Virus record (IMG/VR): IMGVR_UViG_3300031539_000003
Source of the DNA: an uncultured virus (IMG/VR IMGVR_UViG_3300031539_000003)
Lineage: Duplodnaviria; Heunggongvirae; Uroviricota; Caudoviricetes
Strand: one strand, 5' to 3'
DNA length: 64,000 bases
Below the pieces are notes generated by a model. It ran no database searches. It had not been told where the DNA came from and worked only from the letters and a program-made list of their open reading frames with translations. Every line of letters begins with the position of its first letter. Positions within the stretch are counted from its first letter, which is position 1. Shown one piece after another: positions 5,400-54,051 of the stretch. The position numbers were made by a program, and so were the translations under genes.

Positions 5400-8300
5400 A
5401 TATTAATCCTTAAAACGGCAAATTCTCATCCCACAAATCACCACGCTTAACCTTAACTGCCATCACATGACTTTCTTTACAGATAACCGATACCTCACAA
5501 TCATATATCTCTGGTTCTTCTTCATTACTACAAAATCCATCCGTATTAGAATTGAAAAATCCGCAATAATGATTTATGCAAACCATACCTTCTTTATTTT
5601 CCTTATCACTCATCTTTTTCCCCATTTACCAATTTATCTGCCGGATTTTTATAAAGTATAGATAAAACAATAGCCATTACAACTTCAGGGTCTTCCGAAG
5701 GTATATTACCGGCTAAACGCATTTTAGTAATTGCATCGGCAAAATCTTTACTCATCCCACACTCCTATATTAATTCACAGTTATCACAACTTCCCAAATC
5801 ACTCAATCTCTCGCACCCATTATGTTCTTTCCACCAGGGGCATACCGGAATCAACTTTGCTTCCTTAATCATGATTGTATATGCATCATGCACGGCATCT
5901 GGGCATCTTTCTTCGACATTATAACAGCATGATTCACTGGTTAATCTATAAACTTTCCGTAGCGATGGATATTGTGGAACTCCCAAAGAATCACTATCGC
6001 CGGTTGCAGCAACTACTCTACCAGTCTCATCGATTAATTCCCAATGACTATGCTCTCCGTTATCAGCATATCTTTCTGCTAATATTGGTTTCTTAACTTT
6101 TTCCACTACTTTACCCCTTTCATCACTATTCCATATCTTCTAAATCTTCCAGATCTTCATCTTCGACTCCTACTATACGATATTCTTTTCCTTCTTCAAG
6201 ACCAGGGCAATTAAAGGATATACATTCTGATTTTTTACCGTCTTTATCAACTATTGTTATTTTTGCCATTTTTCACTTTCTCCTTGGTACTCCTCTAATC
6301 CATGCCTTACGTTTAGTTTTTTGCCCCATTTTATACTTGGCAGTATCGCATACAAAAGACCACCCGTCATCCACAAGTTCCTGACAACGCTTTCCTTCAT
6401 ACCCATTCAATGTTCTGAGAACCATTTTGTCGTCTATCTTCCCACCTGATATATGATATGCAACAAATCCCTTTTTAATAAAATCATTAGGTTTAGCTGG
6501 CATCCTTTTTCTCCTATATCTTTTCGAATACTTCTTCTATTTTTTTAAAATAATCTAAAACTTTTTCCATTTCTTCTTGGGATAGTATTCTCATATTAAA
6601 AAAACAAGGATACCCATTAACGCTCCTTGGTCCTGCTTCACTCATATACTGGTAAATCATCCCCGGTTTCGAGTCAACCAATTCCTTTCTTCCCTTCTCA
6701 TCCATAAGAAGAAGTGGTATAAATATCGAACCTGCCAAATACTGATCTTCCGGCTTTATATTCCTATCAGTAAATATTGTACCTGCCCGAATTGCCATTG
6801 CTATCTCTTTTAATTCCTTGTCAGTTTTCATTACTTTCCTCATTCTTCTTTATAGTTCTTTCACACTGCTGAATTGCCCAATCCATTTTTTCAGGAGCAA
6901 TATCATCAACAGAACCATACATCCTATTAAACAAATCTATTTGACCAGGTGTACATTGTTTCAATAATCTTCTTAATTCTTCATGTTTAAATTCTGCTAT
7001 TTTTTTTAACGTTTCACTCATCTTTAATCCTTGGTTGTTCTTCCTTAATACGCAATAATACTAAAATTTTACCTATCAATGGTAACCCATAATCTTCAGC
7101 AGCCAAAAGAGTAACATTCCCAATACTAAGTGGAAAACGTTCCCAAAATGCAAAAAGACGAATACAGGGAGTATCCCTTCCAAACTTATAATAATACCAC
7201 TTCCCACCTTTAATCCATCTATATATTTTTAAGTCTTCTATTAACGATTTCAGCAATCTTATCACCTTTCTTATTTTCTTCTTTAGCCGGTACTAAATCA
7301 TCACTAAATTTACCAGATATTAATACTTTAACTTCTGAAGTTAATTGATCAAAAGCATTGCCAAGCATTTTCCTTATTGTTTTTTCTCTATTTTCAGCAA
7401 CAATATACAAAGAACAGACGGGACAAACATCAGCATTGAAGCCAACAGTCTCATGCCCCTTGTCACATTCATACATAAAACTAGGCACTATTTACCCCCA
7501 CAATTTCCATTAACACAAAGCCATTTCTTTTGAGCCCCACAATGAACGCAGCAAGGGTCTGATTCCTTTGTCTTAACGTTAGTAACTATCATACCTAACT
7601 CACTGAATGACACATGTATTTCTTCACAATTACTTGCTATATCAGAATCAAATACATATTCCCTTGCTTTTGGTTGCCCATTTTTCTCTTTTCCCCTGAG
7701 AGCATCGGGTTCTCTTATTATTATCTTCATTATAATTGCGATCCACTAATCTTCAATTTTATCCCCATTAATTTCTTGCCCTTCTTCAATCATCTTAACA
7801 AAATTCTCAATTAAATATCGAGGGCCTTTTCCTTTGCAAATCTCATCGTTACATCTTGCGATGACAGTCAATTCCAATCCATTAAGGTCTTTCATTGTTA
7901 TGCCCTTTTCCTTTTAACTCTCTTTAGATCGTAAGCCCCAGATATTCCCTTTAGCCAAATAACTGCTGTTGCAGACATCACTTCAGCTTCTGACCTTGTA
8001 ACTGTATCCCGAATCTCACCATCATCGAGAGTGACAGTAACAGCATCTCCAACATTACATTTACTATTAAACTTATCTACTCGTTCTTGAGCACGTTTAA
8101 CCATTGTTTCAATTTTCATTTTCATCATCCTTTGCTCGAAGATTAAGGCGGACAATCAATTTCTCCTTATCATGATATTCCCCTGTCACTATATCAACTT
8201 CAAGAACCTTACAATAATGAGTAGCCCTATGATAAGGTTTACGCCACAATATTTTCCATTCGCCATTACAATGTGGACATTTCTTTATGTCACTCATTCC

Positions 8301-10074
8301 GGCCCCGAATAAGATGTATAATTATCTTCATTCAATTCAGCCCTCATATTCCACTGCTTACCCATTTTCTTAATATTATAATCAATCATATCATGCACAC
8401 ATACGGTTGATACCGATCCACGACAACAGGTACATTCCCATCCAACTAAATATTGTTCACCAATAGTAGGGATTAAAAGAACTGTTGCTTTTCCACCACA
8501 ATGAGAACACGATTTTACAATTAACCTACTCATACTTAATCCCAATAGTATTGATGTTTTTCATTTTTCTGCTTTTCTTTAGGTTTTACAGGTTCATCTT
8601 TTTTATCTGGTCCTATTTGTATTTCATTTCCTGTCTTCTCGAAATAATATTGCTCAAGATCACGTACTGTTTTCATAGGTTTTTTCGCTATAAAATGTGG
8701 GAGGTGCATCATTTCACCGTTAGGCATATTAAACATTTCTGCTTTTGTAATAGGGGCATACTTTTTATTAAAATGCAAATCGAAGTAATCATCACCATCC
8801 ATAAACCAATGATCAAAACATGAAGAGCACATTACAACTATATCCTGATCTTTTCTCCAAAAACAATAATTGATCCAATCAATGATAGGATCCCCAGTAT
8901 CAAATTCCTTTACTTCGCCATCGACATTAATAGCAATACATTCATAGGTTGATTGTTTCCCATCATCATACTCAATTGAAAGGTGTGCTAAACACATATT
9001 AACCTCCATTTTCTACTGGGAAAGGCTCTTCTTCCCCCGTATGGATAATGACATGATTAGGTTTATACTCAACAATCCTATCACAATAATGCTCATTACA
9101 TTGATAACAACGGCGTGAACAATCACGAGCAAAATCATCAAAGTTCTCATTTGTTACTATCATTATTTTCTCACTTTAAAAGGATTCTTTTTTTCAAGCC
9201 CCAATGTTGTAGGAATATCAGTTAATAAATTGCCACATTTTGGGCATACTTCAACTTCCATAACATGGCTTTTATGGCTACAGTCTTTTCCATCAGGAGC
9301 ATCTATACATAAAGAAGCCGTTCTAACAAAATCAGCCCCATCACCATCGTCCCACAACACCGGAGTAAACCATTCATCGTTAAGAAAAAGATCGTCCCCT
9401 AAGGTCACACCCTTTTTACCGGTACCTTCCCAACCATCATCTATCATTACTCGCATTCTGATTCCTCATTTCCCTTTATCCCCCTACTGCCGAACGTAAC
9501 TACAACCCCGTCCTTTGCTGCGTCTTCGACAAGATCATCTTGCGCTTTAACAAGATCTTTTGAAGCCTTTTTCCTATCCTTATCATTATCGGCTGACAAC
9601 AATGCTGCCATTGCACTTCCTAAAGTCATTTCGATTTCTCCATTTCTTCATGTTCTTCTTCATGGTCAGAGCATACGAAACATAAGTTTCTTATGTCAAC
9701 AACCTGATTATATTTTTTGCTATAAAAATTGTAATTATTAAAATGAGGATCACCCTCAACAATAGAGAATCTTTTACAACCATCATACTCACAAGTTAAT
9801 CTTATTTTAACTAACATTGGAGATGTACCACATTTAGGGCATTTTGAATCAAGATCATCAGCAGGAACATCAAACTTTTTCCATGTTTCATAATTACATT
9901 GCCGACATCGCAATTTCCTAAGTTTCTTCACTTCTTTGTTCCTCGTTTCTCCTCTGGTTCCTCTCTGTCAATATCCTTAAAATGGTACAAGTTGTTATTG
10001 CCCTAAGAAATAAAACATCTATACAAAACAAAAAGAAAACGAATTTTAATATATCTTCCATAATAACCACCTTA

Positions 10075-11690: not shown

Positions 11691-13212
11691 TTATTATACA
11701 GCCTCTAATCTTTCTTTTATATTATTTTTCCCTGGCACACTCCTAATTTCTTTCACAGGAAATGCAGCATAAACGTGTATAACAGATGATTTCGACTCAA
11801 TGCCCATAACTTTCCATCCTTCATTTAAGATACGGCATAACCCTTTTTCAAATCCTCCACCTTCACTCTCCCATGTAAAAACTTCTACTTCTTCGTACAT
11901 TCTTCGATTATCCATATCCATTGTAAAAATAGGAGTACATCCTTCATAATTCTTTCTTGGGCATGGGTCACAATCTTGTTTATAATGAGGCCGCGCTCCA
12001 CCACAGGCATGATTATCCGAACAACTACGAAAATTTTTACAAATTACGTACATACTTCATCTTCTTCCACTTCAGGTTTTACAGGTTTAGCCGTAACTTC
12101 CATCAACCTTTCAGCAATAGCCCCAATTGCCAACTTTCTTGCCTTTCCATATCCTTCTGACACATGGCATAATACTAATGTATCTTTAGCATAACCGCTC
12201 CAGGGCAAATCAATCTTATAACAATCGCACTTTTCGTGCGAATAATAATCAATGTAAATCGGATTCTTTGACAATGCATGCCCCCTGTTCATTAATATCC
12301 TTTTTCAAAATAGCACAATGAATCTTAAAAAATCCCAAAGGAGACCACCTGTACAAAGGTTCTGCATTTTCACATCCAAAACATGCCTGTTTATCTTCTT
12401 CTTTTTGAGATTTCATACATCTTCCCCCATAAGCCATCTCTCTGTCAATTTTTCATCATAAACTATTCTATCATAAAAATCATCTCTTGCTTTTTCATAT
12501 GCTTTTTTACAAATATCATCACAAACAAAATCACCATCTGCACTCAAAAGAATACCACCATCTTTCATTTCTTTTTGACAATAAAAACACCTCATTAACA
12601 TCATTCTCCATTTTTTATCTTTTTAACACATAAATCTGAACATTCAGTACTTACTCTATAAGATTTAAATTTCAAAGCACACTTCTTACAAATACCGTAT
12701 TGCCCCCTATTAGTACTAATTACACTTACACGATCATCCGGAAACAAAACGTTACAATTCCAACACCTAACTTGTCCCTTCATAAATATGAACATTTGAG
12801 TTTCAAGAAAATCTATACCCAATGATTCCAGTTTATAATGCATATTTTTTATCTTCACTGGCATTCCATCTTCATCTTTAATCATATCAACACCACGGGT
12901 CTCTCTTATAGCATTAGGTAGATTAGACGAAAGGGGATTTTCTGCATGTCCTTCGAGTTCAAGGATTCTCTCACATTCCCTGACCACATCTTCCCACCAA
13001 TATGTCTCTTCTCTTCTTAATGGAAGTTGTATTTCCATTACCTCCATGCCTATAATACTATCAAAACGACCTCCACGCTCAATCTTCTGCCACCCATATT
13101 CATGCTCCATCCCTTCATTCTGAACTCGCCCACCAGGATCAGGAATATAGATTTCATCTCCTGCTCTTATTTTATCTTTTCTTACTTCGAGATACCTTAA
13201 CATCGTTCCTCC

Positions 13213-28385: not shown

Positions 28386-28748
28386 ATGTCAAATACTCAA
28401 ATATGTGAACATTGTGAGGGCGGAGGTATCGCCCCTAACCCATTTGAATCAACTAATGACCCATGTTTACATTGTAATGGAACTGGGACTATTCCCCCAG
28501 CCTATATCGTTTCCCCTAATGAACAACAGATAGAAAAGCACCCATCAGCAACTATACATATTGAATGCCCACTCTGCAATACTCTCCACCCACATATACC
28601 TGATGCTATAGGAGAACAACATAAATGTGAACTTTCCAAAAAAGATTATTATATATCAGGTAAATTACCAAAAATTGTTACATTGGAAAAATCAGAAGGG
28701 GTTCATTCTAATAAAGAAATAGCAATAAAACGACTAGACCATATATAA
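28386..28748 (+). CDS. Zn-finger protein (CxxCxGxG x2 plus CPxC..H) ending in KRLDHI
   Basis: CEHCEGGG, CLHCNGTG, ECPLCNTLH. Confidence 0.6.
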   Translation: MSNTQICEHCEGGGIAPNPFESTNDPCLHCNGTGTIPPAYIVSPNEQQIEKHPSATIHIECPLCNTLHPHIPDAIGEQHKCELSKKDYYISGKLPKIVTLEKSEGVHSNKEIAIKRLDHI

Positions 28749-29185: not shown

Positions 29186-29722
29186 ATGAACGCAGATAAA
29201 GAACATCCACGCTTCGACCTTTGCTCTCATTGCGATGGAAAAGGGCATATAAAGCAGACTAAAGGTAAGAATAAAATCCGCTTCTTGTGCAATGGTTATG
29301 GTCGTATCTCACACGTATTTGCTAAAAGATGAAATCGTAAAGATACCGTTAAATGTCCATTTTGTGGTAATGAACATATGCACTCAACCGGACGAGGTGA
29401 GCGAAAAGCAGATTGCGGCAGGGGTAATTATAATATCGTAAAATACAAAGGAGATAACGAAGTAGATATTCAACACGAATGGATCGAAGGGAACATACCT
29501 AAATTACTAGCAGAACCAGTCGATATAAGACATATGCGAATTATATGTCCGACCTGTGATACAGTAAACATACATGCAAAAGATCTAGGCACATTCGATC
29601 TACACTGCGGTCACGGAAAATGCACAGTCATAGGATTTCAAGAAGCAACCGAAGAAGAAATTAAAAATAGATTTATATCCGTTGCTACCCGTGCAATGAA
29701 AAGACTGGACAACATACAATAA
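29186..29722 (+). pseudogene. Paralog of 28386-28748 with an in-frame TGA at 29330-29332
   Basis: ATG 29186 overlaps the previous stop and is in frame with the 29378 ORF: CSHCDGKG...RFLCNGYG...KR*NRKDTVKCPFCGNEHMH...KRLDNIQ. Confidence 0.65.
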
Positions 29723-30008: not shown

Positions 30009-31574
30009 TATATTCTCCTATTTCTTTTTATTTTTATTTTTATTTTTCTTTTTCTTTGGTGGCTTATTCTCCAATTCTCTCTCCTTCTTCAAATCATCTA
30101 ACGAATAACGTTTAGTTCCACCCTTAGGCAATGGTCTATCCCCATAAGTAGAATCAAACCAATTCCGATAGTTGTCAGTAGCCGGTTTAGTCCTTATATT
30201 ACTCATTGCATAGCTCCTGTTCATAACCAGGGACTAACTCATAACTCAAATTATTCCCTAATCCTACATGTGTCATAATATCTATCAAATAGGCTCTCAT
30301 TGGATAATCAAACCCACGTCTATTACATAACCACTCAAAATCTTCTACCTTTACCTGATCACCTACCTGTATCCACATACTTATTTCCTGCCACATCAAA
30401 TGCGTCCACTTAAAATTCTTATCATTTGCTACTGACTCATCTAACTTTCTCTGATTGTCATCCACATCTGCACTCCATTTATTGAATGCCTTCTTTATTC
30501 TACCCCTTCGCAGAAACTCCTTTATCGTTGGAGGCAACAATATACGAAAATCAAACGTATCGAAAACAAAACTTAATAATTTAACCAATTCCATATTATA
30601 TAGCTTCTAACCGTTCTTTTATCTGCCCTCTACGAGGTGTTCCAACTACTGCCCTCCTCGGCGGTCCTCCAGATACAATATCACCAGCCCATGATCTCTT
30701 ACATCTCGGACATACAAACGATACACCAACGGTTATATTATCAGATGTTTCCGGTTCACGGGTAGCACAAGTACATGCATGAAACATAGCCGTAGAATGA
30801 TTACAAAAAATTCTCCAGAATAGAGTAATTAAAAATCTCTTTAACGTAAAATTATATCCCCATACACTAATCATCTTTTGTCTCATCTCTATGCTTCGCC
30901 ATTTCACCACTAACAACTTTAGCCCGACCAAGCGAACCTTTCAGATTTTCTATCAACCATTTTATAGGTGACTTCGAAGCCTGTAGTCTTATAAGTGCAG
31001 CCTCAAGATTCCCACATACACCAACTGATTTTGCATGTATAAGATTTCTTCTGAGATATTCTGCACTTACTATTTTGGCTTCATCTTCACGATTATGCTT
31101 ACTATATTGATTACTACCATCCAATAAGCTTTGAAACATATCTCTCATTTTAATAAGCCATTCTTCGGGCATATCCTTATACGTAGACCCACACTCACAT
31201 GGATTTTCTAAACATTTTCCACAATCTGACATAGCCATTACAACTTCTCCAATTTCCCGATAAATTAATGGTTTTAAGCCCCTATTTCGTCACTTCTCCA
31301 TGTAAGGCACACCATAGTACCACTGAACCATTTATGAGCCCTATAAATCGTTTCAATAATAATGATACACGGCTTACAATTTCATTACCTATGAAACACT
31401 ATTTATCGACAGCAACACTCACCTTTATCTGTCTTTTATAAATTCTGGTTTTAACTTTTTTATTCTCCCCATCAGTTAAAAAACCGTGAATCTGAAGATA
31501 TGCCCGACTTTTTGATGCACGATCAAGAATTGTTATTTCCCTTGATTTGCCCATTAATTTTTCATCCTTTCTAC

Positions 31575-32345: not shown

Positions 32346-34170
32346 TCTTCAATAATAACCTTTAAATCATAAATGCCACCATCTAACCGATACTGCCCAT
32401 AATTACTATCATACCTATCTATTAAATCATACCACTCATCTGAGTGATCTTTAGCTTTATCAATATCCATACTAATCTTTTCATATTCTTCAACAAGTTC
32501 TTCCGGTATCACATACCAATGAGATGAATCGTCTTGTCTCAATTTACCTAATCGCAATTTTACCTCCTATTGCCTGTTCAAATTCTTCTTGCTTTTCATT
32601 AATTATTTCCGGCCAAATCTCCAATTCAGCAGCAAACACATCTTCAGGAATTAAATAATTAATACTCACCACTCTATATGCAGCCCAATGATCAAAATGA
32701 TTAAGAGAAAGAATGATTGCATCGTCTTTAACAATACCCTTCCCACATCCTCTACACCTAAATTTCCATGAGTGAGATGGGTTTAATACCATTAATTTAT
32801 GATACCAATTACATTTCTCTTTTCTATAATCATGAATGTTCATTTTTTTTCTTCTCCACGTAATCTTTGCAATCAGCCCACGGATCAGATGCACAATCTT
32901 CCGGTTCACCAGATCCTCCCCAATGAAATTTTGCACAATAATCATAATCGTATGGATCATCACCACCTTCTGCCACACTCATAAATGAACCAGGAAAATG
33001 ATGCAACATATTATCGCATGTATCACATTTCATCTTACGTGGCTCACTCATTCGAAAAAATCTCCTATAAAATCGCCATTTCTATATTGTGATTTATTAA
33101 ACCAACCAAGATCCCCAAATCTATCTCTAATAGCCACAGAATGGGCTGTAATTTCACCCACATCACAAACTTCATCTTTATAAAACTGAATAGCATGTTC
33201 AATCAACTCGGGGACATCCCTATATGCTATCACAGTATCACCAACATCAATATTACCCCAATCCCTATAACTAGCTCTTCGCCTTGAGTTTGCTATTTCT
33301 CTTCGAGATGTCCAATTTCCCAGTCTTAAAGTTTGGACGAATAACATAATTGCGTCCTTTAGCAATTATTCCTCCTTTAGGAAACATTTTCTTTAATGTC
33401 AATTCCCTACATTCTATTATTACATCATCTACTGTTTTACAATGACTATACAATTTTACATACCTCTTTTTCAAAAACTAAAAAAGTATCAAGAATCATA
33501 TCCGGTTGTTGCTCAGAGGATAACATATACTTTGATAAATAATTCTCTATCCACCATTTAGCTGCATCTTTACTTTTATGAGAAAGAATATTAATCGCAA
33601 TCACAGCCTTAACTCTATATCCATCAATAGCCTTACTGATCTGTTTCTCAGTAACAACTCCACGCTGAAAGTATGATTCTCCAGGGACAACAGACAATTC
33701 AACTCCGATCCATTGTTCTCTAACCCAAAGAGGGGCTTCCCCGTCAGGGGTACTTATTATCTTAATTTGCACTTCTCGCCTTGCCTTTCTATACTCTTCA
33801 ATCTTTCTTTCGCCGTATTCCTTTTTCTTTTCTTAACCTTCGTTTTTCTTTCCCCTCTATGGATACCCATACTATCACTAACAATACGGACATCCCCAAT
33901 ATCATCTCCATATTTAACTTCAACCCAATCAACCCCAATCTGCTCCCTTAACCATTCTACAAATGCCCTTCTTTTCCATTCATAAACTTTAGATTCTGGA
34001 TCCTGCTCTTTATATCCATCTGGATATATAAAAAAACTAACATATCTATTTGCTACAGTAGGTGATACGTCTGGTAACCAGCCAAATATCTCCTCAGCTT
34101 TATAAAGAACAGCAGGAAGATAACTTGAAATAGCAGTTACAACTATCGCATAATGCACTGTATGCCCCAC

Positions 34171-36813: not shown

Positions 36814-37188
36814 TTATTCATCTCCATTTGGGCACTTACACTTAACTCGATAAACACCGAACTTATTCTTCTTATATTTAACCTCGCAACCACGGTCTTC
36901 GAGTTCTCTAATAATACTTAAACTATCAACATATTTTATTTCCCAACAACCACAGAGAAATAAAATAAAGAGGAATAACAACGAATACTTCACTCTTCCT
37001 CCTTGTTACTTTTTTTTATCTTTTGGCATCCTATATTTTACACGGTATACACCAAAATCGGTATGAGTAACTTTAACCTCATAACCTTGTCTTCTTAACT
37101 CATCAATAAATAAATCGCTTTCAGTGTATCTTATTTGCCAACATTGACAAAATAACAACACAAATAATAACACAAAATACCTCATCAC
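36814..37188 (-). CDS. Tandem pair of small putative lipoproteins (36814-36993, not in ORF track, and 37006-37188)
   Basis: MKYSLLFLFILFLCGCWEIKY...FGVYRVK and MMRYFVLLFVLLFCQCWQIRY...FGVYRVK. Confidence 0.6.
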
Positions 37189-38195
37189 CCCTCCATAACA
37201 ATAGTATCAGGAATGGGTCGTCTGACGGACTCAAAACTGATACCTTTTTTTAATGCCATAATCATACCAGTTGCCTCAAGATAATTCTCTGCTATCAGAA
37301 ATTCATCCGGCATTAGATCATTTAACACTGTTTTATTTTCCCTTACTGCAATTACAGGTATCTTGTTCTGTAAACACGCCTTGTGCGGCCTGCCCATACA
37401 ATTGTATGGTGTAACCATACAAAGAACATTATCTACCGTAACATCATTGCCAATTTGAGGAGCTTTATGAAGCCCCTTAATGATACAATGCAAATAACAC
37501 GTTGAAATTGCTTCTGGGGCAATTCTCGGATCAACTATCTCATTCAATGGTAACATAAATAACTCATTATCATTTTCAACCATAGAAAATTCAACCGGAG
37601 CATGTGCTACCGGTTTATCTAAAGCATCTGCTATGAGTTTTGATGCTATTGCTTCAACACCACCCCAAGGATTCACACCACCTTCACGATAATATCTCAA
37701 AGATATATCTCTACCAACTTTTATCTCAGATGCTATTCCTAGCGCATCAAAATCATACATCTTAACTTGCTTTACAAGTTCCTGCCATCCACTAACATCC
37801 CCTGTGGCAATCCCATTCTCTATTCTCCCTGTCATTTTTAATGGTGTTTTCAATGTTACCACCATTATATCTGCCCCGACAGTCACGCGTGCAGCAGATA
37901 TAGCATTGATCGTCTCTTTATGAATAGGGGCATTGACAACAAACAATATTTTATTTCCACATACTTTTTCAAGCCCTATTTTATTTTCTAAAAACCTGTC
38001 AAGCATACTCCCTTCAACATAAAGAGTATTATGGGACATTTCATTTATATCACTAGCATTTACTACATTCGGATGCGTTATAAAATTTTCACAGGTACTT
38101 GCTACTAACTTTGCTACAGGATTTGCATCCCCCGCATGTCCACCTATTTCTGCCCCGATCCCAGTGGGAACTATAAAAACAACTGAATTTTTCAT
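37185..38195 (-). CDS. DUF3326 family protein
   Basis: IVPTGIGAEIGGHAGDA, ITHPNVVNA, LYVEGSMLDRF, GGVEAI, HAP, GLHKAP, IAVREN, NYLEATG. Confidence 0.85.
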   Translation of the reverse strand: MKNSVVFIVPTGIGAEIGGHAGDANPVAKLVASTCENFITHPNVVNASDINEMSHNTLYVEGSMLDRFLENKIGLEKVCGNKILFVVNAPIHKETINAISAARVTVGADIMVVTLKTPLKMTGRIENGIATGDVSGWQELVKQVKMYDFDALGIASEIKVGRDISLRYYREGGVNPWGGVEAIASKLIADALDKPVAHAPVEFSMVENDNELFMLPLNEIVDPRIAPEAISTCYLHCIIKGLHKAPQIGNDVTVDNVLCMVTPYNCMGRPHKACLQNKIPVIAVRENKTVLNDLMPDEFLIAENYLEATGMIMALKKGISFESVRRPIPDTIVMEG

Positions 38196-38320: not shown

Positions 38321-38812
38321 TCATCCATTTTTATTTGTATTTGTATTTCTTAATAAATATTCAAAGAAATCTTGACCCCAGGCAAATATCTTATCTTTAT
38401 CTTCCACTACACTTAAAGCAACTTCCTTAAATTCACAATAAGCTGCTAATGATTCGGGAACAATATCAACCCAAACATCGCCTACAACGCAATCAATATT
38501 ATTTACATCAGCGGGACATAATTCAAAAAAATCACCGATAGAGTGTGAGCCATATATTTCTCCAAAATGTTCCCTGCAAACATCTATTACCCCTTGATAA
38601 AGTTCTATAGTATGTACCGATTTTACTTTTGGATTCTGCTCAAGATACTTCTGTATTACTCCCAACCCATAACCGGCAACAAGCACATTCCCACAGGCTT
38701 GATCTGCAATAACTTTTTGATACTTACTCTCATCTGGGATGTCCCACATCCATAACTGATCATCTATCCATAAAAAATGATAACCATGTTGCTCAAGAAT
38801 TTCTATTTTCAT
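38321..38812 (-). CDS. Class I SAM-dependent methyltransferase fold, short spermidine-synthase-like protein
   Basis: GNVLVAGYGLGVI, VHTIE, GDFF, DCVVGDVW. Confidence 0.7.
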   Translation of the reverse strand: MKIEILEQHGYHFLWIDDQLWMWDIPDESKYQKVIADQACGNVLVAGYGLGVIQKYLEQNPKVKSVHTIELYQGVIDVCREHFGEIYGSHSIGDFFELCPADVNNIDCVVGDVWVDIVPESLAAYCEFKEVALSVVEDKDKIFAWGQDFFEYLLRNTNTNKNG

Positions 38813-39180
38813 TTCCTATCCACCACCGTAAAAGAAGATATTTGACCTGAGAACCAATCAGCCGTAAAATTTGCAGTCAAATTACTATCAAAATCTTTAC
38901 AACTGAATATATTAACAAATAACTTCTTAAAAGGATCAACTGTATGAATCACAATATTGCTAGTCTTAATGAACTGCACACATGTAACCCCCTTCAAATG
39001 ATCCTCTGCCTTATCATATTCTTCTGGATATCCATTATAATCCCACCAATGGAGATCCTCCCTTTGCATATCAATCAAGTTGCATAATGCTATTATATAT
39101 TTCTTAATATCATTACGATTAAATTTAGAAACATCGCAATTATGTATATCTAGAATAATCTCCTTACCATAATTTTTCAC
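38809..39180 (-). CDS. speD: S-adenosylmethionine decarboxylase proenzyme (SpeD-like, pyruvoyl)
   Basis: YGKEIILDIHNC, GVTCVQFIKTSNIVIHT (putative autocleavage Ser), VNIFSCKDFD. Confidence 0.8.
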   Translation of the reverse strand: MKNYGKEIILDIHNCDVSKFNRNDIKKYIIALCNLIDMQREDLHWWDYNGYPEEYDKAEDHLKGVTCVQFIKTSNIVIHTVDPFKKLFVNIFSCKDFDSNLTANFTADWFSGQISSFTVVDRK

Positions 39181-40581: not shown

Positions 40582-41971
40582 CTATCCCCCTAAATTATAA
40601 TAAACCTATTTTATATATGAACAAGAACTACCGCCCAAAATTGCTTCAAGCCTACCCCTTATATGAGAAGGGCAAGTCAACCCGAATAAATCCTTTTCTA
40701 TCATATAATCTTCTAATATCAAATTTTTTTCCCAATCAGCCAGCCAAACCCTTACTATAGCATCATTCAACTCATCCACTGTTTTAAAAGCAACCATATA
40801 ATCCCTTTTACCATACTCTACACCCAATGCATCCAACATTCTTTGAAATTTGCTCATTGTAGCAACGTCACAATGAAAAGGAACTAAAACAGGAAACATC
40901 TTAACATTCTCTTCTGTCTCATCAGCCAGTGTAGCAAGGGAATATAATAGGTCTTCCTGAATAGATAACACATCCTCATTACCTTTATATTCTTTCAATA
41001 ATTGAGGAAACTTTCCAGAAGAAACCTTTTCCTTAATATGGGCTATATTTTCTTTAGTCGATGCATTCCAATTAATCCCCACAGCCATCACCTCCATCAC
41101 TTAATCCCCCACCTATTGCATCACACATTACGCATATCCCTTCAAATAAAAAGAAAGAATCCCTAAACGCATAAGAAATGGCAATCAATACAATTATTGC
41201 CAATATAACAATTACTATAATACCCCACAAAGGCATAATTCCTCCCGATAAAACGTTAACCCACACTAATACATACTTCCATACCCTTTTTATGCATTTC
41301 CCTTAAAACAACCCTACAGAACGCTCTCCTTAATATCTCCTTAACCTCTCTGCTATATCCACCAGCAGAAGCCAACTGAGCTATATAACGCTCTCTATTC
41401 CCGATATCATCAGATTTCTGATCAACTATCTTTATGGTCAAATCAGTATGATTATTATAATTCTTTGCATAATCAAAAATCTTCTCATTAAACTTCGGAT
41501 CTCTACCTTCAATCTCAACTGCATCATCTGCTATCAAATTATAATTCTCACAATAATATGCAGCGACCCTTTTTAATTCTTGCCATACATCAAATTCACT
41601 AAGAACACTATTGTAACCTATATAAATGTAATATCCTGTCATCTAATTACTCCTTTTTGCTATACTTTCCTCTTCCAAATTTTTTATCATCCTCGATAGA
41701 CTCCTTAAGCAATCTATCGGTTTCCTTATGATTATCAACAAAATCATTATGAACTTCTTTGATAAAATCACCTACAATATTATCTAACTCATCTTGATCC
41801 TTCTTCTGCTTATACCCTTTCCAAAAACCGATAATATATTGTTCATGAAAAATAACTCCACACTTCCCACATTTATATGCATCAAGCCCCTTGTCGATCC
41901 TATTCATCGCTCTCTTATTACAAGAAACGCATTTATATACTTTGTCTTTTCCCAATTATACCTCTATAACA

Positions 41972-42520: not shown

Positions 42521-43238
42521 ACTCTATTTCACGGCCACCATCAAATGTTACGCACTCAGCAGAATTGCAACCTTCATATGTATCAGAAAGATCGCAATGA
42601 TCACAATATTTACCTTCAACCAACAAATCTTCTACAGGAACCGGCTTATAAAACTTTCCATTTATCTCTATTGTATTCATATTACCCTTCTAATGTTTCC
42701 TCTGTTTCCATTACCCTGACCATCTTAACTTTATCTTTACCTGATTTAGACATAATTCTCTTAAATCTTGTTTTTGCAGTTTCATAATCATGATCAGGTT
42801 CAGTATAAAAAATATTATTACCATCATTATAATAAATACGATAATAAACATCGCTTACTTTGAATTTTTCATTTTCCATTATAGCCTACTTTCTATATCA
42901 TATTATATGTTCTTCTTTATAACCAACAGAATAATCTGCCATGATAGCATCCAACCTCCTGTCAATATAAGATTGCTCTCTATCCTTCTTTGCTATTACC
43001 TTCCCATCCTCCATGACTATCCTATAATAAGGAGGTTCAAGGCCTCCGGATAATATATCAAAAAGATCAGAATAAGCCACATATTCTATTCTACGCATAT
43101 GATATAAAGATTCAGCCCTAATTATTACCATACGACTAAAAACACACGATAAATCCCAACCATCCTCAATACAATTACAATTAATAGAAAATCTACCAAT
43201 TCTATTTTCTTTATACAAATTTGATTTTACCATAATAT

Positions 43239-44413: not shown

Positions 44414-44448
44414 AAAAAAAGGCTACCGGATAACTCACGATAACCTTT
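44414..44448 (-). terminator. Intrinsic terminator
   Basis: AAAGGTTATCG-loop-CGGTAGCCTTT followed by a T run. Confidence 0.7.
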
Positions 44449-44468
44449 ATAAAAATATTAGTATGTTA

Positions 44469-44888
44469 TTATTTACTTTTTCTGTCTATCTCCCATTGAT
44501 CGTAAGATTTACCAGCCAGGATAGTGAAAAGAGCATCTGTTATACCCATATTAATAGCTAATCCTCCATGCTCAATACCACTTTTCAATACTTTAAATAA
44601 AATGCCACGATCATATTCATTAACTTTCTTTATTTTAAATACCCCATGAGGAGCATCATTTCCAAACCACATCCTCATACGATAATCAATCAGATATTTA
44701 CCGACCACTATCCACCAGTGAGGCTTAAACTTTCTACCCTGAAAATCTACGTATCCACGATAGCATTGATGATCTATCCCATTTTTTGTTAAAATATAAT
44801 CAATAACAGACGAAAGACCATCACACTCAAGAGGAAAACTGTCACAAGACGACAAAAGTTCAGACAAACTTTTAACAGAATTTTTCAC
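44469..44888 (-). CDS. Putative transglutaminase-like Cys-His-Asp fold protein
   Basis: ECDGLS ... PHWWI ... LIDYR spacing. Confidence 0.4.
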   Translation of the reverse strand: MKNSVKSLSELLSSCDSFPLECDGLSSVIDYILTKNGIDHQCYRGYVDFQGRKFKPHWWIVVGKYLIDYRMRMWFGNDAPHGVFKIKKVNEYDRGILFKVLKSGIEHGGLAINMGITDALFTILAGKSYDQWEIDRKSK

Positions 44889-45253
44889 TAAATATCCCTT
44901 GCGTACATTTTTATTGCAAGATATTCAACAATAGCATAATTAACACCTTCTATCCTAACATCAACAGTAGCCTTTTTTGGATAATAAACTGTATCACCTT
45001 CCTCAATTTCTAACGAAATAAATGACATTTCAAGAGATTTATTATCTTTCCCATCTATAATAGACTGCATATCATCTTTATCCCTATGTACTGGAATAAA
45101 AAACCCCGGACCCTTCTGCATAACTGTTCCCATTCTTAATACTTCTTTTTTCTTAGCTTCATCCGGAACAATTATAGCACCAACAGACTCTTCGCCAGGG
45201 TCTATTGGTTTAACCAAAACATTAATGCCAAGCAAATGTACTTTTTTTCTCAT
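44888..45253 (-). CDS. groES: Co-chaperonin GroES (Cpn10)
   Basis: LLGINVLVKP, GAIIVPDEAK mobile loop, GTVMQKGPG, IEEGDTVYY, VRIEGVNYAIV. Confidence 0.85.
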   Translation of the reverse strand: MRKKVHLLGINVLVKPIDPGEESVGAIIVPDEAKKKEVLRMGTVMQKGPGFFIPVHRDKDDMQSIIDGKDNKSLEMSFISLEIEEGDTVYYPKKATVDVRIEGVNYAIVEYLAIKMYARDI

Positions 45254-45274
45254 TTGATATTAATATACCATTCA

Positions 45275-46006: not shown

Positions 46007-49000
46007 CGCTCACAGATCCTTTCTCCTGCATATTATTGGCTAAAATAATATTTAAAGCCTCATGACGCGATAAAACGATATTAGTCATGTTGCAAACTGA
46101 TTCTTTCTTATTATAAATTACCAAAACCTATCCCATCAATAAATTATCTCCCTCTACTAATTGATTATGATCCGGCTAAATCTATTCTCTTATTTATGTA
46201 TTCAGTCCTATCCATCTCAACTTTATTATCATTACATAATATCTCATCGCTATAGGCAGTTTCAGGATCATACGCATATGGAGCAGCAGATAAAAACTCA
46301 TCGTTCAATCCCCTCAAATCTGTCTCTATATTTAGAAAATCCAAAAACTCTTGAGAATACCCTCTCTGCTCATCCAAATGCTGTCTCACCCACCTAATAA
46401 TATTAGCCAAATGTTTATCATGAAGATCTTTAAACTTAATCTTCCTAATATTATCAGGATCGGCATTGCTTGTCCATGTCATATCTCTATTATATTTCAC
46501 TCATCTCCTCCTGCTATCTCTATCCTTCGAGATGGGCTTACTCCCTTTTCTTCCACTTTTTCTTCCTGACAAGGAACATATCTATATGTAACAATAAAAT
46601 GATGATTATTTTCTTTACGACTAACAAAACTATGTATATTCCACCCCATTTTCTCAATCTCATTAATAAGTTCTTCAAACCGTCCCTTTTTGATATATTC
46701 TCCTGCATTCAATTCGCAATCTTCATCCGTCCCAAAAACTCTCCACTCCTTTTTCATTGGCATCATTGGCAATTCCATAAAATCGGTCACATTTTCAAGT
46801 TTCACTTTTGAATATTGCTCCTGCCAATGATTTCTATTATACCAACCCATTGCCATATCATAATTACCAGATTCATTTTTATATCGTACCCATACAGGTA
46901 TTATGTATTGCCTATTATCACTAAAATACTCTGATATTGGTAACCACTGACAATGATACATATTACTCATTCAACAACCTTTCCATTTCTTCTTTACTCT
47001 TCCTGCAATCATATACACCAAGTGAAATTGAATAAACTACCACGACAATAAATGCAATAAGCCCCATTACCATCACCTCAAATTTAGCCATTACAAACAT
47101 ACTTATCGCAAAAAAGCCTATTATAAAAAGGCCCATTTTATACCTTTGCGTATAACCAATAAAAGTAAGAACATCATATGTACTCACAACACTGACTATC
47201 GTACAAGCCAGTAGCGTTGATAACATTATCTTAATCATCTTTTATATTCAACTTCTTTTTAAGTTCCTCAAATTCAGGATACTCAACACCAGGGACTGAT
47301 TTAGTCAAATTATTAAGATAATCCAAATACTCCTGATCAGTACCAGGAACAAGTGCTTCACCAAGATCTTCCAAGGGCTTCACAGTACCAAATGGTTCTC
47401 CAGTATCCCAATGAAATTCATCAAAAAGAAAATTCTCCCCAAATTTATGCCGACTCAAGGTAAATGAACTATCCACCTTATTAAATACCCCTATACGCCC
47501 ATTCCTGGCACGTATACGGTACACTCTCCCATCGGCACACTCACCCAACGGTATATACTCTATCTGCTGCTCATCGCCCTTATTCTTCCCCATATCAGTA
47601 TCTACCCCTATACTGTTTAATCTCTTATTAACATATGCTTCGGAATTATTCCTTATCGCTACCTTTTCCCTACCTTTTTTCTCCCCTAATCGTATTTTCT
47701 CAAGATCACTATCAGACATAGGATGACCGACACTCTCCCTATGTTTAGATATCCTTCTCTGAATAGAGTCATCCATTTGTGCATGTTCTTGAGTATGGCA
47801 CTGCATACAATAACTTCTTCCACCACCAACGTTATGCATAGAAACATTACTATCAAGATTTATTCCACACATATCACAGACATGTCTTGTCCTTGGCTCT
47901 GATTCCCCCTCTACTATTAATTCCCCAGTAGGTCTTACTGGAGGATCAGGGATTGAATTAAAATCCGGTTCTAAATGGTGCAGCGGAGTCATTTAATGTC
48001 CTTAATCAAAAATAACCGGTATCCAATGTTTCGGTAAATCGGTTGAATTCAATGGCATTAAATTTCTACAAACTGAACAGGTACAGGAACAATTGGTACC
48101 ATTATGATGCCTACCTAAATGTCCGGTATCATCTTCTATAACATCGCCTGCTTCTATTTCCAATAAACTGCCACAAACAGTACAGGTTATTTCGTGTGCT
48201 TTATACTTCCTTTTCACATTCATTTACACCACCTAATTATAATTAGAATCACTTCTATTATTTTTCATTCGTTTAATCAATTGAGGGGGAACTCCATAAC
48301 GAAGCTAAAAAACCAGCCATTCCATCCCTTATTTTATGAGCAGCATACGATGCAGCATAATAATGAGTCAACTCATCTTCACTTAAATCTATCGTTTCTA
48401 ATATTGCCCCTCTCTCCAACTCATTATTTGTCTTTGCTGCTTGCGCTCTTAAATAATCACCCATCTTTCCCCTATTAACAACTATGACATTTGGAGTAGA
48501 ACAAACTTCTTTCTCGCAATCTTTACAATTATCACTATCAGGCCTTTCCATCTTTATAAACTCTTTCTTTTCAAGATCCCGAAAAAGTTCATGCGGCCAT
48601 CTATAAATATTATCTTCCATAATTATTCTCCTATGGCTTTCAAACGATCAGCAATACAATCAGCATTGCTTCTATATGTTGATACTTCCGGATGCGATTC
48701 TATGACTTGCTGCATATACGCTTCTAATTCGGCAATTCTACACTCACATACCTGATTCCTATAATATTCATTCCCACAATTCTGACACTTATAGCAATAA
48801 GGCAAAGGCTGTTCATTAGAATTCCCTCTACTCCTACCACCGAAACCAGTAATAAAGACAGTCTCAATGACCAATAACCCATAATGACCAATCCGCCTTA
48901 ATACCGTTCTACAATTCCTTAAAAAGTTCTGAAGCATAATGTCCGTTCTTATTAAAAAATCCCTGCGCAAATCGCATTGATATAGACTTCATTTTAATAT

Positions 49001-51185
49001 ATTCACTTGGCGACATATTTCTTTTTAAATCTTCTATATCAACATCTCTTACACCAATAATAATTCCTTCGACTGCTGTTTCATCCATCGAATCTTTATC
49101 ATACAAAACAGATATTCTTTCTGGAACACTCAACTCCTTATCTTCAACAAACTGCATTATATGACCACATCGTATACAAATAGATATATCACCTTCTTGT
49201 GGCCCCCTTCCACCAGCCGTACTAGCCCTATCGAGCATTGTGGAACACTTTAAACAAGCATATTTATCAACATTAAAAGTTTTAAGCATTAAATTCACCC
49301 CAATACCAATCGCCTTTTCCTTGCCCCATTTTCCTCTCCCACTCCTTGCCACAAGAACACTGATAAACGCTCGGCTCTACATTTTCCATTTTTTCACCAC
49401 AACACGGAGACAGCCCGTCTTTTGTTTCGTCACTCATAAATTACTCCATTAATAATAAGAATTACTTTCAAATTCAATATATTCATTATGACCTGGCAAA
49501 TACATATGAGCATACCATATTTGATAACCCATAGTATTGTAATGCGCTTTTAATTCAAAATATTTAGCCTTACATTCTTCTATAGTTTCGAAATAATAAT
49601 GATCACCGACATCCCTTGACATTAATGTCCCTCGATGTATACCCCAACGAAACTGATACATCCCTTTTTGCTTTTCCTGATCTTTAACCCGCTGTATATC
49701 ACGATCAATCCTATTCTGGACTTCATGTATAGCCCCGATTCTATCGGTAGCATATTGTTGGCAATTGGGTGACATTTATTTATCGTCCTCATACAACTTT
49801 TTCAATCTATCTGGCATATCATCAGATTCAAAATAAAAATCATCACCGAAAGGCGACCTTGAATAATAAGTCCCATCAGGACTATACATAAACTCGCTCT
49901 TAACTTTTTTGCCATTTTCTCTTAAAAATTGATTCCTAATCAATGGAGTCTGATCCCTGCTTGTATTACCAGCAAAACCTTCAATAACAGTACCTATAGC
50001 AGTACCAATATCTTCAGGATATATCCCGTTCTTATTAAACTTCTGTTCCTTATATTTCCACCCATTATTTTCCAACGTAAACAACTCTAACAAAAAATCT
50101 GTAGCAGTACACTTTTCCATCCCAGCAACCATATTTACAAAATTCTTTTTTGCAGCCTTCCCATGATGCTTTTCAATCATTTTTGCTATTGCTGTTAAAA
50201 TTTCATAATTCAAATCACTTGTAGTTGCACCACGACCAGAAAAATATCCCGGCCTTGCACTCATTCTTAACTCATATAACATGTCACGAGCATTCATTTT
50301 AACCACCCATTAAGTTCAGCCCAGTGATATGCACATTTACCATGACCAGCCTTAAAGCCTGGCAATGACCTATGATCACATTCTGCACACTTCTGTCTAC
50401 CGGTATGCTTTATTTTACTATTATATTTTTCAGCCTTACTCATTGATATCAAGCCCATCAAAAAAAGGATTAGTTTTCAACAGATTTTCATTCACATTCT
50501 TTGATTCTCTCTTCCTTTTTTTATCTTCTTCCTCTACCTGCTTTCTCACTATTAAATCATCGATAGTCACAGACTCTTTCTTTAAAAAATTTCTTAAATC
50601 ACCAACAGTAAAATGGAAAAAATCACTATTCCACTTACCCTTCCACTGAACCATTACTTTCGTCTCATCACCAAATTTATCCAACTCTTTAGCATTATGA
50701 ACTATTACGATATTCATGGCATCACCATCATCACGAAATACTATAAACGGATGGTGATTTAACTTCTTATCAGTAAGCACATTACTCTTTGTAAATAAAT
50801 CATGAAGAGTTGTTCTGCCAATAGTAATGATTCTTTCGGTTAACGTTTTATCTCTCGGGTCTGCATCATACAAAACCCATATTCTTTCTGGAACAACAGA
50901 TTCTCTTTTTTCCTTCGCTACCTTATCTTTATTTTCCTTCGCATACTTATCATTTAAATCTATCCCCCTTTTTGTTGCAATGTCTTTAAGTTCACCTAAA
51001 AAACGAGGGGGCAATTTGCGCTTTTCAAACATCTCAATAACACTCACAAGATGACCATCTGTCATTTCATCAACATTTAAATCTTCAATAGTATCTGCTT
51101 TCCATATATCATTATTCATTTTAAAATACCTCGCTAATATCAAACAAAAAGCCCATAAAATGGGCTCCAAACAACCCCATAAACT

Positions 51186-51214
51186 AATATAACAAAAAAT
51201 GGGTGTTAAGTCAA
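51186..51214 (-). promoter_or_regulatory. Sigma70-type promoter (class 1)
   Basis: TTGACT-17-TATATT with TTTGTTATATT. Confidence 0.75.
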
Positions 51215-54051
51215 GTTATTAAGGTTAGATTAAATACTTTATGCAGAAAGAACTGCTTTCAATCTCTTTTTTAATAATTTAGACGTTTTATTATTAATTT
51301 TATTGTATAGTTCTTTTTCCATATCACTTACAGTTTTTAACTTCGTAGTTCCTATATATTCCAGAACTGAGAACTCTTCCTCACATGATTTTTTTGCCAA
51401 AAATGAAGACCCAGCCACAATCTCAACTTCTCTTTTAAACGGGACTGTCTTACGACTTCCGGGGATTAAAACCGCTTCCCAAAACTCACATAAATACTTC
51501 TCTATTTTATTTACTTTATCACTTGCTTTTCTGCGCTTCTTATGATTAAATCCAAATTTAGCATTTCTCTCATCTAAATGTAAATATTTAAAACACTGAT
51601 TGTGGAATCTGAAAGTTTTAAACCAATTCGACCCGTTAGAAGGCCCATTATAATAAGTATGCTTCCCCTTAACAATTTTCCCACCACACCAATCACACAC
51701 ATAATTATTCCTGCCATTTACAATTTTTGAATAATAAGGATTATCATCTAATCTTATCTTAGCCACTAATTATAATCCTCATATTTATCTACCATCTTAC
51801 CTTTAACTAAAGATTTAAAAACAGCAGACTCAACAATCTTTAAATTAGCCTTCTGTGCTATATCTAAATGAGCCCATCCATCTAGAATCCATAACCCCCT
51901 AATACAAAAAACATTTTCCTTCTTATAATTAAGAACATCAAATTCAAACATCAATGTCTGCTTTTCTTTCCACCTCTTAAAAAATTCCTTTGGCGGTTTT
52001 CCTCCCCCTTTATGAGTATAATCAACAAGTGCATCTGTTTCTTCCAAGGAAGATTTACCTATATACACACTCTGTTTATCATGATCAATGCTAATTGTCT
52101 CTGCCATATCCTTAGCATCTGCCATCATAAAAGCCTTCTGCATAATAGATTTTCCTTCAAATAACTGAGTAGACATCATAACGCTACATATAGGAACTTC
52201 CATTTCCCTTATTTCTTGAGATTCTTTTTCTCCAAAATTTGAAAGTATTGTAAATGCAGTAGTTGACAAAGCAACATAAATATCATCTATCCCATTACCA
52301 ATCATAATCGCCTTAAACCTTTCGCTAACGCTATACTAGCATCGGTTGGTAAACAATCATCTGAATCTAAAAAATCAGGTTCACAACTTATACATTTATG
52401 ATCAAAAAGACTATTGAAATCACTCAACAGTATTTTCCCACCGGATTCTTTTTTCTCAAACTCAGTTGGTGCCAATTCATACCAATTCAAATCTTTATCA
52501 GACATCATATCAGATGTCAAAAAAGTTTTTACAATATGCACACCCCTAAATGACTCTATAACTAACACCCCAAAATGAACGTTTAAATAATGAATATCTT
52601 TATCAATAGCATACTCACTCGTAAACATTATTAACTGATCAAGCAAATCGGCAGCAGTTGGAGCAACACCATAAGTCCTTTTATATGTTTTATAAAAATC
52701 ATTATATCTAGATGGATCTACTCGCTCATCGAATCTTTCAAGAGCATGCGATGTATAAAACAATGCTCTTAAAACACTGCCTTCCCAATGCCCATACAAC
52801 TTCCCCTTAGCCGTAACATATGTACTATCAAGATTAGTTTTAAATCTAAAACCAGTTCTACGAGTCCATTCAAGATTGAAATTTAGCCACTTTCCATATC
52901 TGAGTCTTAACTTTTCAATAATTTTTTTCTGAATCTTCAATACTTTTTTTTGAGACACCTTATCAGGCATTTTATCCTTATATATCTCTTTACACACCCT
53001 TGAAAAAATAGTAGAAATAGTTGCTCTTATGTATTTATCAACGGGCTTTATATCATTAAAATAAGACTGCAATATAGCAAAAGTTACATCATCTGTACAA
53101 TCTTCAATATTAGTAATAAAATTGAATTTAATGGGATCGCCCATAACTAATCATCCGGAATTTCTTTGCCACATTCTCTCAATAACCTATTGTGCCATTC
53201 TTTGGGGTTAGCAATATCATCTACAGTTATAGTAAAGCCATCTATAACTTCCTTACCTTTCATAAAATTAACAGTCAACGTACTATAATCAGTAGCAACA
53301 TTGTCACACTGAATACCTTTTTCGGTAGCATATAGTTTCCCCATAAACCCCAATAGTCCGGCGACCTGAACTACCTTCTTATCTACCCCGTCCGCTTGCG
53401 TCCCCAATAATTCCTTACCCATATAGTATAGCAATTGTTCTGATATTTTTTGCTCCATAAACTCTACCCTATTGATTTAAGTCTTTGTAAAATTGGATCA
53501 TCTTCCTTTTTATTTTTTTTATCTTTATTATTTTCTTCGACCTTAACAACTTTATCTTTACCAACTGACAATCTATCAATTCTATCTTTATATTTATCAA
53601 CAAAACCATAGGCAGTAATAATAAATGAGATATTAAAAAATATCGCTAAAACCAAAGAAATTCCAACAAACCATTTAGATAACAAAATACAAGCAAAAAC
53701 AGTCCCTATCCCTAGCGTTAATCTACACCCCCATAGCATCCTTCTATATGTACTCCTATTTATTATACCAATAAAAGTATCCATTTGTTTCATAAAAAAT
53801 TTATCGTCTGACCTCTCATAATTAGTGTTAACATGACCATAAAATCCAAGTAACAATAATAAAATAAGGATAATTAAACCCACTACATAAACCACTTCAA
53901 TAGTATTAACGTAACATCTTAACTTTCCAGTATATTCATAAAACAATTGCGATACAATAAGACACTGAATAACGGTACTAATAACCCCAATGATATTACC
54001 CAAAATTGCTAAATCTTTTTTCATATTATTTGCCATAGAAATATCCTTCTC

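Follow-up and report, generated by a model that had tools for sequence, protein, structure and literature searches.

A shared C-terminal peptide on a dozen small proteins of an uncultured tailed phage: a candidate docking tag with a modest likeness to the MinD-contact helix of MinE

We analyzed a 64,000-nucleotide stretch of DNA from the uncultured virus IMGVR_UViG_3300031539_000003 (Caudoviricetes), hereafter the window, and found a short peptide motif, aliphatic-x-x-R-L-[KEDN]-[ASNH]-[IV], on twelve small phage proteins; it stands at or near the C-terminus of eleven of them and inside the twelfth. The motif is probably a lineage-specific docking peptide that would tie a dozen unrelated small proteins to one common partner. 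A dimer of a ParA/MinD-type ATPase, be it the host MinD or a phage-encoded enzyme, is a tentative first guess for this partner, made by analogy with MinE; the next most likely partners would be another phage or host hub, including a neighboring actin-like protein, and a shell or scaffold. Public metagenome contigs as long as 136 kb include the window sequence; one of them (L003) adds 10 kb beyond the window, so that 74 kb could be read of a genome that measures at least 136 kb.

The strict core of the motif, RL[KEDN][ASNH][IV], was present 12 times in 172 open reading frames (ORFs; 20,303 amino acids), when 2000 within-protein residue shuffles gave a mean of 0.52 and a maximum of 4 matches. 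Eleven of the 12 matches fell in the last 20 residues of their protein (shuffle mean 0.08, maximum 2; p 1.9e-8 for at least 11/12 under uniform positions), and the excess at C-termini suspected in a first-pass annotation, made by a model from the sequence alone, was borne out. This strict pattern was defined after looking at the sequences; hence we added a screen of 29,734 gapped three-residue patterns, in which the last 20 residues were compared with the protein bodies. RLxxI came out on top (11 tails vs. 5 bodies, p 2e-8), with the low-complexity pattern NKK as a near-equal runner-up (p 5e-8). Lys-rich low-complexity sequence is enriched in the C-terminal tails apart from the motif (NKK, 9 tails vs. 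3 bodies; KxxKK, 13 vs. 17).

A nine-column profile built from the instances gave a bimodal distribution of scores. The 12 instances scored 18.6 to 23.6 bits and the next match 16.2 bits, followed by matches of 10.1 and 9.8 bits that are at shuffle level, because shuffles yield 1.7 matches of at least 9 bits per proteome. In all six frames the strict pattern was found 14 times, 12 times in genes and twice elsewhere, the latter at chance level. No match of at least 12 bits, and none at a C-terminus, was observed in control sequences (five loci of other phages and the L003 extension; 185 ORFs, ∼41,000 amino acids), and in two huge-phage records with the actin-like gene the surrounding 41 kb were free of motif tails. 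Tagged genes make up ∼7% of the genes in the 64-kb block, whose ORFs otherwise resist annotation.

The eleven tails and the internal copy reported by the first-pass annotation were all recovered where it had placed them and at the distances from the stop codon that it gave (Table 1). The residue three positions before the Arg is aliphatic in 12/12. The number of residues between the motif and the stop is, in gene order, 0, 0, 0, 1, 0, 10, 10, 14, 2, 3 and 1 for the eleven tails, and 125 for the internal copy; 8 of the 12 motifs thus lie no more than three residues from the C-terminus. In the protein of gene 47231-47992, an N-terminal CxxC region precedes the internal copy and a phrog_3740 domain (residues 146-214), which also exists alone elsewhere, follows it. 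This arrangement is as expected if a tagged gene had fused with its neighbor. Read by eye, the carrier encoded by 53464-54036 crosses the membrane about four times and ends in a Lys-rich tail.

Fainter versions of the motif fared less well. A possible 13th copy, in gene 54372-55154, has D instead of I or V at the last position. Among the weaker variants put forward earlier, INKRIDLA and PSRRIEIA scored below 9 bits, which is noise level, and are not retained. The third, IKKRLRIV, is in no ORF: it follows an in-frame TAG and is located within an 18-codon extension, KENANPIKKRLRIVMEGC, which is the sole read-through extension with a match among the 172 genes. It may be a decayed tail or a tail whose synthesis depends on read-through, and a tail interrupted by TAG suggests that changes at stop codons create and abolish tails. 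TAG serves as a stop 40 times in the window (TAA 84, TGA 48) and is therefore not generally recoded there.

Table 1. Motif instances, further candidates and other genes of the window (positions from the first base of the window)
Feature	Gene or protein	Position	Strand	Score or remark
VNRRLKNI, last 8 residues	7219-7488 (89 aa; Cys/His-motif)	7222..7245	-	20.4 bits
IKERLEAV, last 8 residues	11694-12053 (119 aa; Cys-rich N-terminus)	11697..11720	-	20.7 bits
AIKRLDHI, last 8 residues	28386-28748 (120 aa; CxxC; weak DnaJ_CXXCXGXG match)	28722..28745	+	19.9 bits
AMKRLDNI, then Q and stop	29378-29722 (114 aa)	29693..29716	+	20.6 bits
IKERLEAI, last 8 residues	30596-30931 (start uncertain; overlaps 30867-31238)	30599..30622	-	23.6 bits
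AKERLKSI, then 10 residues	33757-34170 (137 aa; phrog_11375 at aa 1-100, basic linker)	33790..33813	-	21.5 bits
IRGRLEAI, then 10 residues	40606-41100 (164 aa)	40639..40662	-	21.4 bits
IDRRLDAI, then 14 residues	42898-43233 (111 aa)	42943..42966	-	22.6 bits
VNKRLNSI, internal (aa 121-128 of 253)	47231-47992	47609..47632	-	20.1 bits
IADRLKAI, then GE and stop	48623-48970 (start uncertain; overlaps 48909-49352)	48632..48655	-	21.9 bits
LKKRLKAV, then LSA and stop	51239-51766 (175 aa)	51251..51274	-	18.6 bits
ILQRLKSI, then G and stop	53464-54036 (190 aa)	53470..53493	-	20.3 bits
TIAKRLKAD, possible 13th copy, 36 residues from the end	54372-55154	54483..54509	-	16.2 bits
KENANPIKKRLRIVMEGC, in-frame extension past TAG (2485-2487)	CxxC ORF 2485-2625	2428..2484	-	10.1 bits
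DUF3326 protein		37185-38195	-	Pfam E 2e-72; 53% identical copies on two IMG/VR contigs
AdoMet decarboxylase		38809-39180	-	Auxiliary-type gene
Phosphoheptose-isomerase-like		2865-3203	-	PHROG match; auxiliary-type gene
Cpn10/GroES-like protein		44888-45253	-	Auxiliary-type gene
Multi-helix-turn-helix (HTH) protein	243 aa	45275-46006	-	HTH_23, HTH_7, HTH_28 and other matches along its length

The codons of the motif were then compared with those of the genome. The invariant Arg is encoded by AGA, AGG, CGA, CGG or CGT and the invariant Leu by TTG, CTT, TTA, CTA or CTG, both roughly in genome proportions. By hand count, identical codons were shared by 22/66 pairs at the Arg (0.31 expected) and by 12/66 pairs at the Leu (0.27 expected). 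The synonymous differences that had been quoted for the two closest copies (AGA TTA GAG vs. CGG TTA GAA) are correct, and the sequence after the stop codon varies between carriers. The sole hint of an effect at the DNA level is at the Ile position, where ATA makes up 8/10 of the Ile codons as compared with 45% genome-wide (p 0.03). These data show that (i) there is no sign of recent copying, because identical-codon pairs are no more frequent than codon usage predicts; and (ii) selection acts on the peptide and not on the DNA, as had been proposed, because the Arg and Leu codons follow genome usage and the carriers have no similarity outside the tails.

In the 13 residues that precede the motif, Lys and Arg number 3.42 on average vs. 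1.72 in the background (p 5e-5); this stretch has no acidic excess and is rich in polar residues of the type found in disordered segments. An AlphaFold2 (AF2) model of the protein of gene 33757-34170, built with a 63-row alignment, had a compact alpha/beta domain at residues 1-99 (predicted local distance difference test, pLDDT, 89), a helix at 102-114, a break and a second helix at 120-135, inside which the motif lies; the mean pLDDT of the block 121-130 was 89. A single-sequence AF2 model of the 7219-7488 protein, poor overall (pLDDT 70), had a linker at 61-72 with pLDDT below 50 and a helix at 73-87 with the motif. The helix after a linker that had been suspected from the letters is thus predicted for both proteins. 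With a spacing of i, i+4 and i+7, the aliphatic residue, the Leu and the Ile/Val would share one helix face, next to the Arg. The tail is predicted to consist of a basic, polar and flexible linker followed by a helix that holds the motif.

In an all-vs.-all BLASTP comparison, the only matches between carriers were the tails themselves or had an E value of 0.1 or worse, and no Pfam or PHROG family was common to the carriers. The carriers are not detectably one family, in agreement with the earlier view that they are unrelated; the exception allowed at the time, paralogy of the 28386-28748 and 29378-29722 proteins, is weak (BLASTP E 0.1). They include Cys-rich proteins, the protein with several membrane spans and the alpha/beta domain of phrog_11375, and a C-x-x-C/H motif is present in 9/12 carriers vs. 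47/160 other ORFs (Fisher p 0.002). None of the recognizable enzymes bears the peptide, as had been noted.

Only the domain of the 33757-34170 protein has a wider family, with 528 relatives found with HMMER, and the comparison of tails was made with the best-scoring 149 of these 528. Among them the homology ends near residue 100, and 148/149 are without the tail; one of the 148 has a strict match inside the domain, which we take as chance. The closest of the 149, P0015 (43% identity, 132 amino acids), comes from a 927-base contig and ends in TVEERLDLIGGNDES (KNITVEERLDLIGGNDES). It keeps aliphatic-x-x-R-L-x-x-I, at a different distance from the end. Because 148 of the 149 examined relatives are without the tail and P0015 keeps a variant, the tail appears to be an addition specific to this phage lineage, retained in one diverged relative. 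Further relatives of the locus were sought by several routes. Megablast and tblastn searches of 50,697 phage records returned nothing for the 618-amino-acid ORF or for DUF3326, scans of IMG/VR with proteins as queries returned only two DUF3326 loci, both without the motif, and a DNA pattern for IKERLEA[IV]-stop had 0 matches in IMG/VR. Scans of species genomes for relatives returned nothing, and word-index protein searches returned only the query itself or tail-less relatives. A Foldseek search of the 33757-34170 domain against the PDB gave weak rows, the best being a phage SAM lyase (6zm9; E 8e-3, TM 0.37), with ACT or PII-like domains as other weak structural neighbors.

If the tail is a docking peptide, a two-turn amphipathic helix that closes a basic, flexible C-terminal tail, or lies close to its end, in proteins of the small-gene block would connect all twelve carriers to one common partner. 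The guess at an ATPase comes from E. coli MinE (minE from the K-12 record), which the tail profile scores best at residues 17-25, IAKERLQII, with 11.5 bits; the tail of the 33757-34170 protein, KRKRNTAKERLKSIERQ, resembles the flanks of this segment too. Residues A18, R21, L22 and I25 of MinE align with the four constrained positions of the tails (aliphatic, Arg, Leu and Ile/Val), and A18-K19-E20-R21-L22-Q23-I24-I25 compares with AKERLKSI and IKERLEAI through a core of aliphatic-K-E-R-L-x-x-I. At the positions of the MinD interface, Arg and Leu are invariant in the tails, the −3 residue is always aliphatic, the +4 position is Ile or Val in 12/12, and the equivalent of K19 is Lys or Arg in half of them.

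In published work, residues 13-31 of MinE form the MinD-contact helix, which folds only on MinD binding and competes with MinC for helix 7 of MinD, and the upstream residues R10, K11 and K12 touch the membrane (PMC6803595). R21 is involved in ATPase stimulation (PMC7276532) and contacts MinD E53 (PMC12462528), MinD binding is impaired by K19A, L22R and K19E/R21G (PMC2883074), and the MinE peptide is a portable tag on foreign proteins, placed "internally or at either terminus" (PMC6922632). In PDB entry 3R9J, position 24 of the MinE chain is N; this is the core position at which the tails (A/S/N/H) differ from the Ile of the wild type. The MinD-MinE structures (3R9I, 3R9J) are reportedly those of Park et al. 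2011 and 2012, and the contact details given here are taken from later papers citing these two.

MinE and the tails share a basic patch upstream of the helix (R10-K12 in MinE) and a segment that, in MinE, is unstructured until bound. They differ in that the MinE helix is near the N-terminus whereas the tags are at the C-terminus, in that the tags come without a membrane-targeting sequence and a dimerization domain, and in that MinE is one dedicated regulator, whereas the tag is on 12 unrelated phage proteins. The Pfam model of MinE (PF03776) matched none of the 12 tails (E up to 10) and none of 15 full-length carriers and candidates (E up to 0.1). Since this model spans the contact helix (it matches E. 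coli MinE from about residue 14), the carriers are not MinE homologs, and any likeness would be mimicry of one helix. The link to MinE is modest, and we find it worth stating because four constrained positions match a proven portable docking tag and the basic patch has its parallel.

Were MinD the partner, tagged proteins would be brought to membrane-bound MinD-ATP, where they would compete with MinC and MinE, and the tag might trigger the MinD ATPase. A fuller and more doubtful version is that a dozen early proteins carry a mimic of the MinE helix and use the host Min oscillator, or a ParA-type ATPase of the phage's own, as a landing pad; takeover proteins would be placed or gathered at the membrane or the poles, and the choice of the division site would be jammed meanwhile. 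A complex of two E. coli MinD chains, ATP and Mg with the alignment of the tails (33757-34170 tail as first row) was modeled with scores of 0.21 and 0.25 (mark 0.32); the modeled MinD came from another host than that of this phage and was folded without an alignment, and the scores count neither way.

Several observations weigh against docking to such an ATPase or weaken the case for it. The conservation of the tail rests on one comparison, with P0015 as the sole tailed ortholog on its short contig. The position equivalent to K19 is Lys or Arg in only 6/12 tails, and where MinE has Ile at position 24 the tails have small or polar residues. MinE was returned neither by the Pfam search of the tails (E up to 10) nor by a profile search of the PDB, whose sole matches were to a cathelicidin-like peptide (E 0.35) and SCO1480 (E 3.2), and the tail profile found nothing on the E. 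coli chromosome. Matches of at least 12 bits occur ∼0.3 times per 19,000 shuffled positions, so that ∼20 equal chance matches are expected per bacterial proteome, and MinE was not reached through an unbiased search but singled out after some ten other motifs had been considered. No ParA, MinD or CbiA-type match was found in the 141 window ORFs and 7 extension ORFs of the 74 kb, and the MIM1 motif of ESCRT-III, compared below, fits the core as well as MinE does.

Other explanations of the shared tail were weighed against docking. That the tail times the destruction of early proteins by an AAA+ protease (ClpXP, Lon or FtsH), one of the options first raised, is unlikely. Such a degron would suit the flexible, basic tails and the position of 8/12 motifs within three residues of the C-terminus, and the ClpX recognition tail of MuA ends in RRKKAI, which resembles RRLKNI. 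However, only 4/12 motifs end their protein, when signals of the ssrA/MuA type lie at the free C-terminus; in three tails the motif is followed by 10 to 14 further residues, and another copy lies inside its protein, which disfavors the degron in its strict C-terminal form. In the ortholog P0015 the motif is kept at a changed distance from the end, the third motif position is acidic in 7/12 tails, unlike the basic MuA-type signal, and no protease gene was seen beside the carriers. A loading signal for the capsid or for a phage-built compartment would be a special case of docking with a shell or scaffold as partner. Encapsulin and microcompartment peptides have the same architecture, a short helix on a linker that ends unrelated proteins, but the carriers lie in a small-gene block typical of early or host-takeover regions, one of them has several membrane-spanning stretches, and no capsid, scaffold or portal gene was recognized in the 74 kb; we hold this option to be improbable.

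The tails might instead be a module inherited or recombined from one ancestral 3′ gene end, without necessarily a shared partner, or the carriers one fast-evolving family. The excess of C-x-x-C/H motifs among the carriers and the possible paralogy of the 28386-28748 and 29378-29722 proteins fit such descent, but identical Arg or Leu codons are not in excess, similarity stops outside the tails, the folds differ (alpha/beta, membrane, Cys-rich), and neutral descent would not hold two residues invariant while their codons drift, which makes a common origin of this kind quite improbable. Very improbable is an amphipathic helix that binds the membrane directly, in the manner of the C-terminal anchors of MinD or FtsA. 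The order of a basic stretch and a C-terminal amphipathic helix would allow it, the FtsA anchor contains IKRLNSW, and the best PDB profile match, mentioned above, is a membrane-active peptide; against it, the hydrophobic face consists of three small aliphatic residues with no aromatics, acidic residues occupy not only the third motif position but, in several tails, the place just before the Arg, and an Arg-Leu pair that never varies suggests contact with a defined site on a protein, not with lipid. That the peptide merely translates a nucleic-acid signal placed where genes end (promoter, ribosome-binding or processing site), or is plain chance, is largely refuted. The preference for ATA and the abutment of several motifs on the start of the next gene would speak for a nucleic-acid signal, but five codons each are used for Arg and Leu in genome proportions, the sequence after the stop differs, and the non-coding frames are at chance level; against plain chance, 0/2000 shuffles reached the observed count.

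The window is packed with ∼172 small ORFs (35% G+C; 93% coding with a simple ORF pick), of which 149 to 151 are on the minus strand; a plus-strand island lies at 26.5 to 29.7 kb. A PHROG match at E ≤ 1e-5 was found for 17 of the 141 window ORFs of at least 62 amino acids. Pfam matches in the window were to thymidylate kinase, N6/N4 DNA methylase, RNA ligase, S-adenosylmethionine (AdoMet) decarboxylase, a Cpn10-like protein, DUF3326, DUF5662, an HNH protein, a multi-HTH protein and an M15/VanY peptidase, and no tRNA genes were found in the window. Shine-Dalgarno-like 4-mers precede 76/172 starts as compared with 15% of random positions. The Shine-Dalgarno-type starts and the peptidoglycan peptidase point to a bacterial host. 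By eye, a sigma-70-like promoter (TTGACT, ∼17-base spacer, TATATT) was seen at 51170-51239, after the stop of the tagged gene 51239-51766, and it may mark a transcription-unit boundary within the small-gene block.

The large proteins of the L003 extension are Ser-rich, glycosyltransferase, subtilase-like and actin-like of the Volactin family. Long Ser-rich repeats (SESS, SDSS) are present in 58927-60783 (−) and 54372-55154 (−) of the window and in L003:70-3261 and L003:3303-4103; the 618- and 260-amino-acid window proteins are related via these repeats (BLASTP E 1e-15), and no Ser-rich repeat protein had a Pfam or PHROG match. The actin-like protein (L003:8581-9975, ∼9 kb past the right end of the window; 464 amino acids) has an N-terminal extension of ∼130 residues and matches Pfam Volactin with E 6e-70, with weak MreB and PilM matches as well. 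Its only phage relatives are in two uncultured huge phages (485 and 595 kb; 32 to 36% identity). This protein is a possible alternative receptor for the tails; C-terminal helices are also employed by the adaptors of actin-like partition systems.

Docking peptides of similar size are known for relatives of MinD and for other machines. In ParB, the peptide that binds ParA combines hydrophobic residues with a single central Arg or Lys and lies in an unstructured end. In the partner peptides of ParA-type ATPases, the hydrophobic residues occupy a pocket where the two ATPase subunits meet, and the central Arg/Lys contacts an acidic patch (PMC12462528). The tails resemble the peptides of ParB, ParG and PomX in being a motif of about nine residues in an unstructured end; in contrast, those peptides are N-terminal, on a cognate adaptor encoded beside its ATPase, and there is no ParA gene in the 74 kb here. 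MIM1 of ESCRT-III, [DE]xxLxxRLxxL[KR] with the minimal form LxxR-hydrophobic-xxL, is C-terminal after a linker (PMC12057046). It shares with the tails the spacing, the Arg-Leu and the C-terminal place after a linker, whereas the tags end in I/V and not in L, and no Lys or Arg follows in the tails that end at the motif. Among the window and extension ORFs there was no MIT domain. MIT domains are known from eukaryotes and archaea, and we know of no MIT-domain receptor from bacteria. Clamp-binding motifs, PDZ ligands, the Tat motif, DnaK-binding peptides, T4 prohead-protease sites and nascent-chain arrest peptides were considered as well and dropped because their residues and the variable distance to the stop were not both matched.

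Short terminal address peptides organize much of cell biology. To our knowledge few are known in phages, and each serves one machine (clamp, prohead or protease adaptor). Searches of the open-access full-text literature found no description of this motif or of a MinE-like tag on phage proteins. Knowing the receptor would open a first way into the functions of a dozen orphan proteins together and would inform how a large phage organizes its early proteins in space or time. Should the receptor be MinD or a ParA-type ATPase, the tags would represent a new viral use of host positioning machinery. The clamp-binding tails and the capsid-targeting sequence of T4, the SspB XB tail and the encapsulin and microcompartment peptides address unrelated proteins to one machine. 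The tails described here share with them the principle of one short terminal peptide on several unrelated proteins, but they have another sequence, and their set of carriers is much larger and more mixed. If the phage does use the Min oscillator or a ParA-type ATPase as a landing pad, nature would have, in these tails, its own version of the synthetic "MinE peptide tag".

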